The position numbers and the translations under genes are program-made. The notes below the pieces were generated by a model, which ran no database searches, was not told the DNA's origin, and saw only the letters and a program-made list of their open reading frames with translations. Of a stretch of 64,000 bases of DNA, positions 1-7,351 are shown in pieces. This DNA comes from Candidatus Berkelbacteria bacterium (GTDB lineage Bacteria; Patescibacteriota; UBA1384; JACPKC01). How positions within the stretch are numbered: position 1 is the stretch's first letter; each line of letters opens with the position of its first letter. Location of the stretch: assembly GCA_016187225.1 (NCBI GenBank), contig JACPKC010000006.1, forward strand, positions 25,051 to 89,050. The letters run 5' to 3'.

Positions 1-2049
1 CTCGGCTTGCAACTTGATGTGATCAATTTTGTCAGCTCTTCTAGTCATTCTCTGTAGAGCGACTGCGCCATTTTTTCTGTTTACACTTCGTTTATGCTCG
101 TATGGAATGACCGACTTATTATAGGAAGAACTAAATTCTTCATAAACATGCCGTGATTTTCTATTCATTACACGTTCGTTTCGATAATGCTCAATGCCTG
201 CTTTTTCACTTTTCTCAAATTTTTGCAAATGAATCGTTTGACTTTTTGCCTCTTCTCGCGCCGTTTTTTTTCGGTGAGTGTGTCCCATGCTCGATGCTGA
301 AACACCGGAATTTTTTCTATACATGCTACGTTCGTGAGTTAGATGAATTACTGGTTCGAGTTGCTTTGTTTTCTGCGATTTCGGCCTTGGTTTTTGCAGA
401 TTTTCGGATATTAAAAATGGGAGATTGGGTTTAGGCAAATGGTAAGATTTTCTCACACTCGCTACACTCCCAGCAGAAGGGCGTTCTTTAGCCTTGGGTG
501 AATCAACTGATATTTTTTGTAAACATTCGTCGGTTGGAGTTTGACTGATGCTTATAGGGCAAACCCTAGTGAGTGGCATTTCAGTTTCAATGCTTTCGGC
601 TCGTCTTAAATGGCTTTCTTTTGTTTCTTCTTGTAACGGCCGATGGGGCGGACTGATGGCGGGGGCAGGTTGCTCTATGCATTGAACGTTCGTTGGTTGT
701 ATAATGAGTTCATCTCTAGAAACTAAACTATCTGTTTTACATTCGCAGATGCTCTTAATGACATATTCTGCATCTATGATTGGCTCAATCAAATCTATTT
801 TTGATGTAATTCTATCGCTAGCTATGTGATTCTTTAAACTCTTATGTTCTGTTTTAATATGGTCTGCCTGGATTTTTGTATCAACTTCGTTTGGTTCAAT
901 ATGTTCTATCCAATCAGTTTTTTCTCCTGGCTGCACATTTTCGGCTAGGTTTTTTAGCTCAAATTCAAATGAATCTTCTCGCTTAATTTCATTCTCACTC
1001 TCATTCTTTTCAGCATCCTCATCGGTATTCCCTGCTTTCCCATCTACGTACGTGCACACATTCAACGTTCGTTTAATTTGTGTTGGAGCAGGCATGTTGA
1101 GTGTTTCGTCCTCTATGCCGGAGGAGTTATCTAGGTCGGCTGGTTCTATTGGCAGAAGAATATCTAGTTCTTCGAGATTCGACTTCATCTCAACTCCAAG
1201 ACATTTGCCGACTTGAAGTATATTTGGGTCGCCCAGAGTGCGATAAATGTTTGTCATCAAAATGTTCACGTTCGGAATATGTGTAGCCCAAATGTGCTCT
1301 CCTCGCACAGAAAGCTCATTCACCAGAGTCGCATATAAACTAAATTGTTCAGGGTCGGCTAAGTCCCAATGCACAAGAGGCGAGCCGTCTTCATTGATGA
1401 GCTCAAAACCAGTTTCTGTGCGTAAAAGTGAAAAGTGAAAAAGCTGATGCTTCTCTTCTTGCTCAAGCGATTCTATTTTTTTTACGGGCCTGAATGGATC
1501 ATCTTGAGGGTCGATGTTCGTGACTTGATAGTCCGGTAAAGATGTTTCTGGCAGGATCGTCGCGCGGACAATATGAGTCTCTGGTTCAAGCTCAAAGTAC
1601 TGTTCTTGGCGAGTCTCTGGCGATTTTCTAAGCGCAGAGCCGAACTGGTTGAGTTCTGTGCACAATTTTTCAATTTCTTCAAATTCTTGCTCGCCGATAA
1701 GATCAAAGTCAAGTTCAACAAAACCATTGTCACGCAGTACCTGGGAGAGATTATCACTTTGCTCGAGAGGAATGAGGGGCATGAGTAGTTTGTGTGGAGA
1801 AATCTCTTTAGGACATTGCCAGAGGAGAAGAGAATGACTTTGATTCTCATTTTGCGACAAGTAATACCAAGTCTCTTTATTTGTTTGTGGATAAAATGCA
1901 AAAAAATCTTGCCCAATTCCTTCATGGCAAGATTCTTGTACTTGGCACTCGTCCTGATTTGGTTTGCAATCAACTAACTCAAGATTCTCATTGACTGGAT
2001 GATGCTGTTCAAGCTCGCGTGAAGATAGTTGTGCCTCAAGAGTTTCCAT
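1..2049 (-). CDS. Large acidic hypothetical protein, at least 683 aa, 5' partial at the window edge. The C-terminal region has degenerate basic repeats of the form xERxMNRKxxx.
   Basis: Manual reverse-complement translation from ATG at 2049-2047 (RBS GAGGAG 6 nt upstream) is open through all 683 codons to position 1. The ORF is absent from the track, probably because it has no stop inside the window. The track ORFs 153..434(+) and 1482..1973(-) are other frames or the antisense of this gene. The region is AT-rich relative to the core. Confidence 0.6.
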   Translation of the reverse strand, partial: METLEAQLSSRELEQHHPVNENLELVDCKPNQDECQVQESCHEGIGQDFFAFYPQTNKETWYYLSQNENQSHSLLLWQCPKEISPHKLLMPLIPLEQSDNLSQVLRDNGFVELDFDLIGEQEFEEIEKLCTELNQFGSALRKSPETRQEQYFELEPETHIVRATILPETSLPDYQVTNIDPQDDPFRPVKKIESLEQEEKHQLFHFSLLRTETGFELINEDGSPLVHWDLADPEQFSLYATLVNELSVRGEHIWATHIPNVNILMTNIYRTLGDPNILQVGKCLGVEMKSNLEELDILLPIEPADLDNSSGIEDETLNMPAPTQIKRTLNVCTYVDGKAGNTDEDAEKNESENEIKREDSFEFELKNLAENVQPGEKTDWIEHIEPNEVDTKIQADHIKTEHKSLKNHIASDRITSKIDLIEPIIDAEYVIKSICECKTDSLVSRDELIIQPTNVQCIEQPAPAISPPHRPLQEETKESHLRRAESIETEMPLTRVCPISISQTPTDECLQKISVDSPKAKERPSAGSVASVRKSYHLPKPNLPFLISENLQKPRPKSQKTKQLEPVIHLTHERSMYRKNSGVSASSMGHTHRKKTAREEAKSQTIHLQKFEKSEKAGIEHYRNERVMNRKSRHVYEEFSSSYNKSVIPYEHKRSVNRKNGAVALQRMTRRADKIDHIKLQAE

Positions 2050-2172
2050 ATTCTCCTCTGCAACGGAGGTGAGCACTGTAAATTTCTTAAGGCTGGTTGT
2101 CGGACTCCCACTCGAAGTGGATTACCGTTGCGGCACAGCGCCGGAATCTCACCGGACTTTCCCTAAAGATAT
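2050..2172 (-). promoter_or_regulatory. Cobalamin (B12) riboswitch, short class without the large P6 extension, plus its expression platform
   Basis: The minus-strand RNA reads AGGGAAAGUCCGGUGAGAUUCCGGCGCUGUGCCGCAACGGUAAUCC...GGGAGUCCGACAACCAGCC. This matches the conserved cobalamin-riboswitch core (AGGGAA, GGUGnnAnUCC, GCnG, CCGCAACGGUAA) and the 3' AGUCnGAnAACCnGCC element. A downstream CACCUCC can pair with the GAGGAG RBS of the ORF that starts at 2049. Confidence 0.75.
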
Positions 2173-2236
2173 GATAGTGACCTTAAGATTAAATTGTTAT
2201 TTTTATTCTAAACTAGATAGTCTTTAACGTGTCAAG

Positions 2237-2265
2237 AAAAGCCCCTTTTGAGGGGCTTTTCTTGA
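2237..2265 (-). terminator. Rho-independent terminator hairpin aaaagccccTTTTGAggggctttt, bidirectional
   Basis: A perfect GC-rich 9-bp stem is flanked by A-runs and T-runs. It lies directly after the 58-aa ORF and before the riboswitch promoter region. Confidence 0.7.
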
Positions 2266-2279
2266 GCTTGCACTATTTT

Positions 2280-2456
2280 TTACTGTGCTGGCGGAGTTCC
2301 TTGAGGCATCCCACCGCCCATGCCATCGTCTTCCTTAGTGCTTTCATCTGGCATCCCCGCTGGAGCCGGGGTATCAGATGGAGCCGATGGAGCGACTGGC
2401 GGCACGCCGCCTGGTTGATCATCACTTCCAGGCATATTTGGCATATCGTCGAACAT
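2280..2456 (-). CDS. Small 58-aa Pro/Gly/Met-rich acidic protein (MFDDMPNMPGSDDQPGGVPPVAPSAPSDTPAPAGMPDESTKEDDGMGGGMPQGTPPAQ)
   Basis: The ATG has a strong RBS (GGAGGTCGAT-ATG). The ORF is below the 60-aa cutoff of the track. It ends 15 nt before the terminator hairpin. Confidence 0.45.
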   Translation of the reverse strand: MFDDMPNMPGSDDQPGGVPPVAPSAPSDTPAPAGMPDESTKEDDGMGGGMPQGTPPAQ

Positions 2457-2542
2457 ATCGACCTCCTAGCCTTTTACTACTAACTGCATCATATCAGGAG
2501 AATCAATCAGGTAAATGCATACTTGTGGATAACACATTGACT

Positions 2543-3070
2543 CTAGTATTCATAGACATAAAACGGTCCGTATTGGGTGGTGCGTTGGAACGTCTCACTT
2601 GGCTTGCGGTTTGGGAGCGGAAAACAATAGGCAATAACGCGCGCGCCATGCCTTAATTCTTGTTCGAATTTTTTTTCAAGGCGTTTCATAATGTGCGGTA
2701 AGAGATAGCAATAAACAGTCGAAGTTTTTTTAAGATTGGTTGTATATAAATTTGCGCATCGAAAAGTCAATCCAGGAATCCCGCGGTGCCGTAACCGAGC
2801 AAATAAAACCAGCGGCAGAGAAATATCGACGCCTTCGGCTAAACTAGAGCCGTGTTTGCAAACATAGGCACAGAGCATTCCTCGGCCGGAACCGAGTTCT
2901 GTAAAATGTTCGCCTGGAGATAGTTGCGCGAGCGCGAGTATCACATGAAAGAGTCCGGGAGGTGTGCTAACAAATTGCGCTCCGCCAGCCACTGATATCA
3001 GGCCGGACAATCCCAAAATCAATAAACCGAGTGCGACACTAAGAAAAATTGTGCTTATCACGAGTGTCAT
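2543..3070 (-). CDS. Small class I SAM-dependent methyltransferase-like protein with an N-terminal TM helix
   Basis: The sequence ELGSGRGM resembles the glycine-rich motif I of Rossmann-fold methyltransferases. The N-terminal 40 residues are hydrophobic. Confidence 0.5.
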   Translation of the reverse strand: MTLVISTIFLSVALGLLILGLSGLISVAGGAQFVSTPPGLFHVILALAQLSPGEHFTELGSGRGMLCAYVCKHGSSLAEGVDISLPLVLFARLRHRGIPGLTFRCANLYTTNLKKTSTVYCYLLPHIMKRLEKKFEQELRHGARVIAYCFPLPNRKPSETFQRTTQYGPFYVYEY

Positions 3071-3178
3071 AGTTACAATATAACTAAAATTAAATTTGGT
3101 GGTGGCTGTATATAAAGTAGCGCGAATTCATCTACAACAAGAACTTGACACTATACTAATCGAAATCCCGCACGTTTT

Positions 3179-4560
3179 GTGCGGGATTTTATGAAAGCAG
3201 AGCCATTTAACGTCAGAGTGATTGCAGAACAATCCACCTATAAAAAACCGCTTGGCATTTTGGCATGGCACCCAGATCGTCTCGCCCGCAATAGCGTTGA
3301 TGGTGGAAAAATAATTTACTTGGTGGACACCGGAGCCATTGCTTCTTTGCGCTTTCCGCAATTTTGGTTTGAGCCAACTCCGCAAGGGAAATTTATGTTG
3401 AACATCGCTTTTGGACAAAGCAAATACTATGTGGATTCTCTTTCCGAAAACACGAAAAGGGGTTTGCGCCAAAAGGTTCGCAGGGGCGAATATCCGAGCG
3501 TTGCGCCCATTGGCTACATAAACGATGTCCGCACAAAATCAATCGTGGTGGATAGAAAGAAAGCTCGGATTATTCGCCAAGCGTTTGAGCTATACGCAAA
3601 AAGTAATTCGCGACTGGAGGACATTTCGAACTTTTTGGCGCAACGCGGAATACTATCCCACGGCGGAAAGAGAATCCACAAGACGAGGGCGACTTTTATC
3701 CTTTCCAACCCGTTTTACACCGGATTATTCAAATATGGCGGTGAACTTCACGAAGGAAAGTACGAGCCAATAGTGGCAAAGAAACTTTTTGATCAAGTAC
3801 AAGAAGTGATGAAACGGAGAAGTCGTCCGCGCCACAAACAGAAAAATGAACCACAAGTATATTGCGGACTCCTTTCGTGCGCGTCATGCGGTATGCAAAT
3901 CACTGGCGAATACAGGGTGAAGACGCAGTTGAACGGCACACAACATTTCTATACTTACTGCCACTGCACCAAGAAATCTAAAACTCAAAAATGTCCTGAA
4001 CCCTGTATTCGCCAAGAATCGTTGGACGCGCAAATTTCATCACTTCTGCAAAAAGTTTCTTTGCCACAAGATTGGGCGAACTATCTAAACGGAAGACTTG
4101 AAAAAGACAAAACGGAATCCGCCCAATCTGTTTCTGCTTTTGTTGAAAAAAATCAAAAAATGATTACTGACATCACAGCGAAGCTCCAGCGACTTTTAGA
4201 CGGCTATTTAGAACAAGATATAGACAAGGAAGTATATCGTGCTGAAGAATCAAAATTGCTATCCGAGAAAAAGTCGCTGGAGGAGGAAATATCTCGTAAT
4301 CAACAAAAGCAGAAACATTGGCTCGAACCGATGGAAAAGTGGATAAAGGACGCGGGAAATATGGAAAAAATTGCATTGGATAGCAACCTTTTTGCTAAAA
4401 AGGTTGCTGCCAAAGAAATCTTTGACTCGCACCTCTTTCTTGGCGAAAAAACAGTCCGCCCCGCCGAAGGCGGGACTCCGAATTCGTTTGGAAAAATGGG
4501 GGGAAATCAGTGGGACGCGCTTCGCGCGTCCCACGCTCTTGGGTCTTCTGTATCTTTTTC
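3179..4560 (+). pseudogene. Large serine recombinase (resolvase/invertase family), N-terminally truncated remnant
   Basis: The ORF begins inside the catalytic domain (LAWHPDRLARN...GKFMLNIAFGQSKYYVDSLSENTKRGL...PIGYIND). There is no upstream sequence in any frame for the catalytic-Ser N-terminus. The recombinase domain, a Cys-rich zinc ribbon (CGLLSCASCG...CHC...C) and a coiled coil follow. The track ORF reads on through a terminator hairpin and the opposite-strand tRNA-Gly, which is an artifact. Confidence 0.6.
4509..4533 (-). terminator. Hairpin gtgggacgcgc-ttc-gcgcgtcccac, likely terminator of the atp operon/tRNA-Gly transcript
   Basis: A perfect 11-bp GC-rich stem sits downstream of tRNA-Gly on the minus strand. 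A U-rich tract (uuuuucc) follows on the minus strand after a short spacer. Confidence 0.45.
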
Positions 4561-4568
4561 TACAAAAC

Positions 4569-4642
4569 TGGAGCGAGTGAGGGGAATCGAACCCCCGTCT
4601 CAACCTTGGGAAGGTCGCATTCTGCCATTGAACCACACTCGC
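4569..4642 (-). tRNA. tRNA-Gly (anticodon CCC), CCA encoded
   Basis: Manual fold. The acceptor is GCGAGUG/CACUCGC and the anticodon stem is CGACC/GGUUG. The anticodon loop is UUCCCAA and the T-loop is UUCGAUU. The discriminator is U. Confidence 0.85.
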
Positions 4643-4666
4643 AGACGCCTTCCGTATTGTAAACGA

Positions 4667-7351
<2,685 letters not shown>

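Follow-up and report, generated by a model that had tools for sequence, protein, structure and literature searches.

What remains of a mobile element beside the tRNA-Gly(CCC) gene of a Candidatus Berkelbacteria genome, and which of the neighbouring genes ever belonged to it? The question is raised by the window analysed here, a stretch of 64,000 nt of contig JACPKC010000006.1 (G+C 50%), in which this tRNA gene sits directly downstream of the ATP synthase genes atpG, atpD, and atpC (window list of open reading frames, ORFs) and is traversed by a plus-strand ORF of 507 codons, from a GTG at 3179 to a stop at 4702. By its domain content, the ORF encodes a large serine recombinase without the catalytic N-terminus. 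A preliminary description of this DNA had read the whole block up to 4560 as one degraded element with retained cargo; the present analysis points to a smaller object. Specifically, positions 3257-4573 are quite probably the fixed right-hand stump of an integrative element that belongs to a Patescibacteria-wide family, was truncated by a deletion or rearrangement, and is now the trailer of the tRNA. The features on which this reading turns are the following.

3257-4568, plus strand: recombinase remnant, equivalent to codons 73 to about 509 of full-length members, with no stop or frameshift.
3257-4568, plus strand: domains kept, from ILAWHPDRLARN onward the last part of the catalytic domain, then recombinase domain, zinc ribbon, and C-terminal region.
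3179-3256, plus strand: non-homologous 5' extension of 26 codons, a chance read-in from GTG 3179 or ATG 3191, scored at -1.3 bits by a hidden Markov model (HMM) of the N-terminus.
4574-4702, plus strand: read-through tail of the ORF, antisense across tRNA-Gly and into the 3' end of atpC (ORF list).
4569-4642, minus strand: tRNA-Gly(CCC), found by ARAGORN and scored at 63.8 bits by the Rfam tRNA model, intact and with the CCA encoded; its acceptor and T-arm are the host-side (B') half of the attachment (att) site.

The identification of the ORF from 3179 as a large serine recombinase is borne out by its Pfam matches, which comprise the Recombinase domain expected after the catalytic one (PF07508, E 8.8e-15, 55 bits against a cut-off of 21), Zn_ribbon_recom (PF13408, E 1e-4, 23.0 bits, just below the cut-off of 25.3), and a partial Resolvase match that covers only profile positions 67-144 of 145. 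The zinc-ribbon CxxC and the later Cys residues are invariant in the alignment with homologues, and the same alignment places a catalytic serine in the homologues and none in the window copy. The best NCBIfam matches of the protein are CcrB (1.2e-23) and XisF (3.7e-20), both far under their cut-offs, and a protein search returns more than 7,500 homologues, the best of which are 65-81% identical, about 530 aa long, and come from Patescibacteria. The frame meets no stop ahead of tRNA-Gly and passes antisense through the entire tRNA to its first stop at 4702; the C-termini of the homologues are antisense-tRNA translations too. The gene had been described as abutting the 3' end of the tRNA: the tRNA is indeed present at 4569-4642, but the gene does not end at 4560, since the ORF continues to 4702.

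The point of truncation is sharp. DNA homology to full-length genes (blastn) begins at 3257, which corresponds to codon 73 at ILAWHPDRLARN and sets the breakpoint at 3256/3257, and a 7-nt direct repeat, TTGGCAT-t-TTGGCAT, spans it at 3252-3266. Alignment with full-length homologues shows that about 72 N-terminal codons are gone, including the catalytic Ser in the YARKS motif; about 75 had been anticipated. The Resolvase profile is entered only at position 67. An HMM of the family N-terminus has no match in any frame of 2950-3262, which, with the start of DNA homology at 3257, upholds the earlier claim that the N-terminus and its serine are missing from all upstream frames, and no N-terminal part was found across 71.5 kb (the window plus 7.4 kb further left). 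Three candidates for a surviving N-terminus were rejected: a split gene with its N-terminal half elsewhere, for which the 71.5 kb hold nothing; decayed N-terminal codons in another frame ('VYKVARIHLQQEL' against 'YARKS..QLQEL'), which the N-terminal HMM scores at no more than -1.3 bits; and a weak in-frame similarity of residues 1-25 to the N-terminus, again at no more than -1.3 bits and with DNA and protein alignments in disagreement. An IS110-family insertion as the cause of the truncation was likewise discarded, the window being without similarity to the insertion sequence found in another disrupted copy of the gene (L168, see below).

The junction is present in two assemblies. An independent Logan contig is identical to window positions 1-3308, adds 7.4 kb to the left, and ends at 3308; the junction 3256/3257 is thus also found there, with 51 nt beyond it, so it is not the artefact of one assembler. 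A chimera, in which an assembler joined the genome to one of many recombinase copies in the sample, would suit a family that is multi-copy in metagenomes and at whose genes contigs typically break, as well as a Logan contig that stops barely inside the conserved part. Nevertheless, it is hardly credible, because the 161-kb NCBI genome contig and the Logan contig agree through the junction and the 51 nt that follow, the two sides share only the 7-nt repeat, which is too short to mislead an assembler, and the stump is continuous rightward with tRNA-Gly and the atp operon.

The preliminary description had placed the breakpoint at a hairpin just upstream of the remnant.

3162-3190: hairpin with a 12-bp stem, -19.4 kcal/mol, z -4.8, 0 of 200 shuffles better, with an A-tract and a U-tract.

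The hairpin is genuine and has 12 bp, but the break lies elsewhere: homology starts at 3257, and the hairpin stands 67-95 nt upstream of 3256/3257, between the promoter region of a methyltransferase gene and the stump. It spans both candidate start codons of the stump and resembles a bidirectional terminator; an Rfam 'Leu_leader' match at 3106-3192 (25.7 bits against a cut-off of 50) was dismissed as an artefact of it. No plus-strand promoter-like site was found upstream of the stump ORF, which also has no free ribosome-binding site (RBS), the start codons lying within the -19 kcal/mol hairpin. Expression of the stump ORF therefore appears unlikely.

The element had also been called decayed, a term that the remaining frame does not justify. 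Its 437 codons contain no stop and no frameshift, and only four private changes occur at 136 positions that are at least 97% conserved, the corresponding counts in 118 full-length homologues having a mean of 1.25, a standard deviation (sd) of 1.6, and a maximum of 10. The intact frame is best explained by recent truncation. It could be taken instead as the mark of a domesticated dead recombinase, a DNA-binding protein (recombinase domain, zinc ribbon, coiled coil) that occupies att or tRNA half-sites and, for example, blocks related integrations; the undamaged 437 codons, a number of conserved-position changes inside the range of full-length homologues, and the retention of the DNA-binding domains all agree with this. 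Such a role is nonetheless very improbable, given that the ORF has neither a promoter-like site nor a free RBS and its starts are buried in the hairpin, that nucleotide-level constraints (a tRNA terminator and conserved helices, see below) together with a recent event account equally well for the intact frame, and that other disrupted copies, one with an IS110-family insertion (L168) and one with a fusion (L169), have no truncated form in common.

The nature of the stump as one end of an integrated element emerges from its relatives. The comparison set comprises 86 related loci, six fetched via homologues (L001-L006) and 80 from metagenomes (L088-L167). Of the 56 loci that extend far enough downstream, 51 have a recombinase ORF whose end falls within a tRNA gene read in antisense, and 25 isoacceptors are hit in this way. 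The last 86-170 nt of the gene, reaching 4-6 nt inside the CCA end of the tRNA, recur as an inverted copy that lies 46-350 nt ahead of the start codon and is mostly 95-100% identical. This first repeat pair is present in nearly all related loci with enough upstream DNA, and many contigs therefore break 200-350 nt upstream of the gene. A second inverted-repeat pair adjoins the first and encloses 1.4-6.5 kb of cargo in the 10 loci where both are visible.

L004:2769-11524; L005:6615-11537; L088, L094, L096, L097, L101, L111, L128, and L135: loci with two adjoining inverted-repeat pairs.

The repeats around the recombinase gene measure 86-170 nt and those around the cargo 130-400 nt. Host genes flank two of the loci, L004 and L005, at either end; the cargo is a diversity-generating retroelement in the former and a zeta toxin plus an HD protein in the latter. 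The complete order is host, core, repeat a, cargo, inverted a, core, inverted b, promoter, recombinase, b, core, tRNA, in which the internal site consists of the joined element ends in inverted orientation. In five contigs (L121, L126, L138, L143, L166), the gene is followed immediately by the element-side half-site, the arrangement expected of a circular or tandem form. A circular form would hold two inverted att sites. A scan of viral contigs found no relatives of the recombinase.

The junctions themselves are equally regular and bring the window copy into line with its relatives.

4569-4573: shared core TGGAG, antisense of CCA and the next two tRNA bases; the crossover region of attR.

In related loci, the inverted-repeat identity stops 4-6 nt inside the tRNA 3' end, and the aligned junctions have TGGAG or TGGTG as their common core. 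The T-arm motif TCGAAC on the tRNA side begins 12-15 nt after the core, and a yyGAAC motif on the element side lies exactly 4 nt farther from the core than TCGAAC in every one of 33 loci. The element half-site is thus a putative mimic of the tRNA T-arm, displaced 4 bp outward. A comparable displacement is on record for the A118-type serine integrase, in which attP and attB differ by a 5-bp shift of the zinc-ribbon motif (PMC3783163), and the likeness consists in a recognition motif that is shifted between half-sites, by 4 bp in the present family and by 5 bp in A118. The window junction has the same core, and TCGAAC follows it at position 14, in the register shared by all related attR sites; the stump therefore derives from a genuine integration by this family.

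The opposite end of the element was sought over 10.7 kb, made up of the part of the window left of the stump and the 7.4 kb beyond it. The preliminary description had proposed to look left of position 1 for a second att copy, a partial tRNA-Gly repeat, and none exists within the 7.4 kb left of the window; more generally, a second att copy, a tRNA-Gly repeat, and a left inverted-repeat arm are all absent from the window and from this extension. A profile built from 35 element half-sites, which detects related loci at E 1e-8 to 1e-13, has its best match in the window and left extension at E 4.4, and the cargo-side repeat arms of 10 elements have no similar sequence in the window. As no inverted copy, repeat, or half-site is there, the left arm, the promoter, the 72 codons, any cargo, and attL have been lost; moreover, since related cargo modules measure 1.4-6.5 kb, a retained left end would be expected within the searched 10.7 kb. 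A possible attL right of the hairpin (GAGC at about 3200, then CAGAAC and an A-rich run) was rejected, because it leaves the half-site profile silent and has the motif at position 23 instead of 18. The hairpin might be taken for the original terminator of tRNA-Gly, pushed aside by the insertion, a reading for which L005 offers a tempting parallel but which leans on this same attL.

These results bear directly on the model of the preliminary description, in which the whole block to 4560 is one degraded element that has kept the methyltransferase, a small peptide, and a large ORF as its cargo, while its left end is to be sought farther away or has decayed. The genes concerned are listed here from right to left.

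2543-3070, minus strand: methyltransferase of 175 aa, with an N-terminal hydrophobic segment (likely a membrane helix) and a seven-beta-strand fold.
2280-2456, minus strand: ORF of a 58-aa acidic, Pro/Gly/Met-rich peptide, with a terminator hairpin at 2232-2265.
2074-2200, minus strand: cobalamin riboswitch aptamer upstream of ATG 2049 (RF00174, 31.9 bits against a gathering score of 31.5, a marginal pass; E 4.7e-5).
1-2049, minus strand: orphan ORF HYW32_01350, first 683 codons of 791, G+C about 40%, ending 326 nt left of the window.

The small methyltransferase is confirmed as methyltransferase-like by its resemblance to PDB 5fa8/5jwj, the most similar structures, which represent the archaeal protein-lysine N-methyltransferase aKMT (residues 31-162, E 3e-8). 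It shares the seven-beta-strand fold with aKMT and differs in its extra N-terminal hydrophobic segment and in a score far under the cut-off of the aKMT model NF041081 (E 4e-7, 30.1 bits, cut-off 200), so that it is related to aKMT but not an equivalog of it. Its Pfam matches fall below cut-off, and only one other homologue exists, 45% identical. The architecture may resemble that of the FAM173 enzymes of animals, among which is a methyltransferase of ATP synthase subunit c; the gene is located about 1.6 kb past the last ATP synthase gene. The good RBS and terminator ascribed to the 58-aa peptide are also there, with AGGAGG 5 nt ahead of the ATG and a 15-bp hairpin after the stop, in addition to a promoter-like site with an extended -10; the peptide ends in GMGGGMPQG-like repeats at its C-terminus and has no match in Pfam or NCBIfam. 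As for the giant riboswitch-controlled ORF, the riboswitch stands, being marginally above the gathering score, but the ORF has 791 aa and ends outside the window. This ORF has no homologue among 5.8 billion proteins and is followed by a 547-aa AAA+ (ClpB-like) ATPase; the two (L087:1260-5287) would constitute a B12-controlled orphan pair behind the marginal riboswitch. The genes farther left (thioredoxin-reductase-like, P-type ATPase) are host-like in appearance.

The cargo model draws on a G+C content that is reduced from about -1000 to 4560, on the single distant homologue of the methyltransferase and the complete lack of homologues of the 791-aa ORF, on the position of the block next to the recombinase stump and the tRNA, and on the high diversity of related cargo, which ranges from the retroelement of L004 to the zeta toxin of L005. 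Against it stand the absence of attL, half-site, and repeat arm from 10.7 kb despite the sensitivity of the profile, the modest size of related cargo modules (just 1.4-6.5 kb), and the host-like genes farther left. In addition, the 86 related loci contain no homologue of any of the three proteins (methyltransferase, 58-aa peptide, 791-aa ORF), and other stretches of the window are as low in G+C as the left-hand DNA (39-47%, where 1-kb windows average 50% with an sd of 5%). With the left att or repeat missing and no homologues in the 86 loci, a single element spanning 1-4560 with its cargo in place finds no support, and the model is on balance unlikely. Most simply, the left-hand genes are unrelated flanking DNA.

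Unlike the left end, the right end of the element is still there and may have acquired a function.

4430-4573: counterpart of IR-R, the right arm of the inverted repeat in the family; the window has no left arm, which intact units carry ahead of the promoter.
4510-4534: conserved G+C-rich hairpin of 11 bp, GTGGGACGCGC-ttc-GCGCGTCCCAC, that also codes for the conserved peptide QWDALRASH.
4447-4476, minus strand: terminator-like hairpin and T-run downstream of tRNA-Gly (terminator scan).

The hairpin at 4510-4534 has a folding z of -6.7 on the minus strand, and in 48 genes 78% of the cells in which both sides have changed are still paired. The sequence of the 4447-4476 terminator is also present in the left repeat arm of L001-L003. 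Together with the hairpin at 4510-4534, this terminator, supplied by the element, probably now ends the tRNA-Gly transcript, a role that would favour the keeping of at least the last ~120 nt of the stump. The stump itself is predicted to be catalytically dead and immobile, because it has no catalytic serine and no attL.

Within the coding region of the recombinase, six nested long-range inverted repeats of 15-26 nt (window 3430-4317) recur in homologues. They were evaluated for pairing in the 48 genes, with a chance expectation of 37.5% and with kinship (the tree) ignored, and are given here with the share of both-sides-changed cells that are paired.

4129-4146/4300-4317: intragenic pair, 79% paired.
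4184-4206/4260-4282: intragenic pair, 67% paired.
3430-3446/3664-3680: intragenic pair, 59% paired.
3464-3480/3627-3643: intragenic pair, 56% paired.
3904-3918/4000-4014: intragenic pair, 45% paired, at or near chance.
3773-3798/4042-4067: intragenic pair, 37% paired, at or near chance.

These intragenic repeats suggest a conserved structure of RNA or single-stranded DNA.

A coherent history can be proposed for the stump. In the intact element, the large serine recombinase would drive integration at the CCA end of tRNA genes, and its gene terminates in the att site, so that after integration the ORF continues antisense into the tRNA while, on the opposite strand of the last ~140 nt of the gene, the hairpin and the terminator would substitute for the displaced 3' flank of the tRNA. 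Further left, the intact unit carries the inverted ~140-nt arm before the promoter, the cargo within the second inverted-repeat pair, and the attL junction. In this genome, a deletion or rearrangement that reached rightward as far as 3256/3257 would then have taken the first 72 codons, the promoter, the left arm, any cargo, and attL. The resulting stump would not catalyse recombination, and its excision in trans would also be impossible for want of an attL partner; it probably persists owing to the recency of the truncation and to the service of its 3' end as trailer and terminator of tRNA-Gly(CCC).

Several observations weigh against this reconstruction. The left-hand 5.5 kb are lower in G+C and made of orphan genes, which are possibly of foreign origin and could be former cargo. 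The 11-nt TCGAAATCCCG at 3160-3170, adjoining the hairpin on its left, is also found where the left repeat arm of L005 has its inner end (GGTTCGAAATCCCGTGCGAT) and in part at the corresponding place in L001-L004; it could be the last trace of the lost left arm or a coincidence, the chance of which is estimated at roughly 0.02-0.1. The intact 437-codon frame could reflect selection on the truncated protein, and the role as tRNA terminator is a prediction. Finally, no close relatives with an empty or an intact site were found, and the history rests on distant ones: the nearest reference genomes are only 76% identical in AtpD and differ in gene order, none of them with a tRNA-Gly after the atp operon, and no related host genome is among the 86 loci.

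Other broken copies of the gene exist in the family. In L168:86-3073, the recombinase gene is split by an IS110-family transposase element exactly between the WHP and the DRLARN codons, 18 nt from the position equivalent to the window breakpoint. In L169:1249-3879 (protein P0007, 876 aa), a complete divergent recombinase continues in frame into a second copy, which has lost its 5' part and sets in at AFGQSKYY, and it appears that one element landed in the recombinase gene of another or deleted up to it. L097 and L125 carry two recombinase copies each. Relics of the family recombinase gene are thus seemingly common, the broken copies L168 and L169 having arisen from what look like differing accidents.

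Compared with known systems, the family has the domain order of large serine recombinases (the A118, phiC31, and Bxb1 integrases, CcrB, XisF), i.e., catalytic-PF07508-PF13408, and their att sites with a short core. It differs from them in that it targets the CCA end and T-arm of 25 tRNA isoacceptors instead of one protein-coding site, and in that the 3' end of its own gene is one att half-site and the element contains a second, inverted copy of the att region. Among integrases at tRNA genes, tyrosine recombinases are the classical case. Islands that target tRNA genes, including tycheposons, mostly use tyrosine integrases and resemble the family in the placement of the integrase beside the tRNA 3' end, in their small cargo modules, and in the relics that they leave at tRNA genes; a minority of the tRNA-associated elements of Prochlorococcus carry a large serine recombinase. 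Islands of tyrosine integrases have a long direct repeat of the 3' part of the tRNA, whereas in the present family the identity is limited to 4-6 bp and the long repeats are inverted; no direct repeat of tRNA-Gly is found in the window. The yeast 2-micron plasmid with its Flp/FRT system and the invertible segments of the Hin/Gin type offer a further comparison. A circularised family unit would resemble the 2-micron plasmid in having its cargo and recombinase segments between two inverted repeats with the recombinase site central in each, but in the family a large serine recombinase takes the place of the tyrosine recombinase or small invertase, and the elements are found integrated in chromosomes. 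The likeness is inapplicable to the window stump, which has kept one arm only.

Full-text literature searches that combined serine recombinases or integrases with tRNA targets and Patescibacteria brought up no account of this family, of the T-arm mimic, or of the inverted att duplication. It is conceivable, and proposed here tentatively, that the stump goes back to a so far undescribed family of integrative elements, which is abundant in Patescibacteria and is characterised by a host half-site made of T-arm and CCA, a mimic shifted by 4 bp, an inverted att duplication, and conserved intragenic helices. The architecture of the family, as read from the compared loci, is well supported in itself; the inverted sites, if functional, may serve inversion, two-way integration, or copy control. 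The window stump is an ordinary relic, while the family behind it may be a new variant.

The stump carries little weight of its own: it marks a past integration and exemplifies how the 3' end of an element can turn into a permanent tRNA trailer, and the ORF 3179-4702 should not be annotated as a working recombinase. The family could matter more, as it counts thousands of members in bacteria with very small genomes and carries retroelement and toxin cargo. The use of one conserved motif across 25 isoacceptors would make its recombinase a natural serine integrase with a programmable-looking and widely available target, and the family is likely a major route of gene flow in the Candidate Phyla Radiation.

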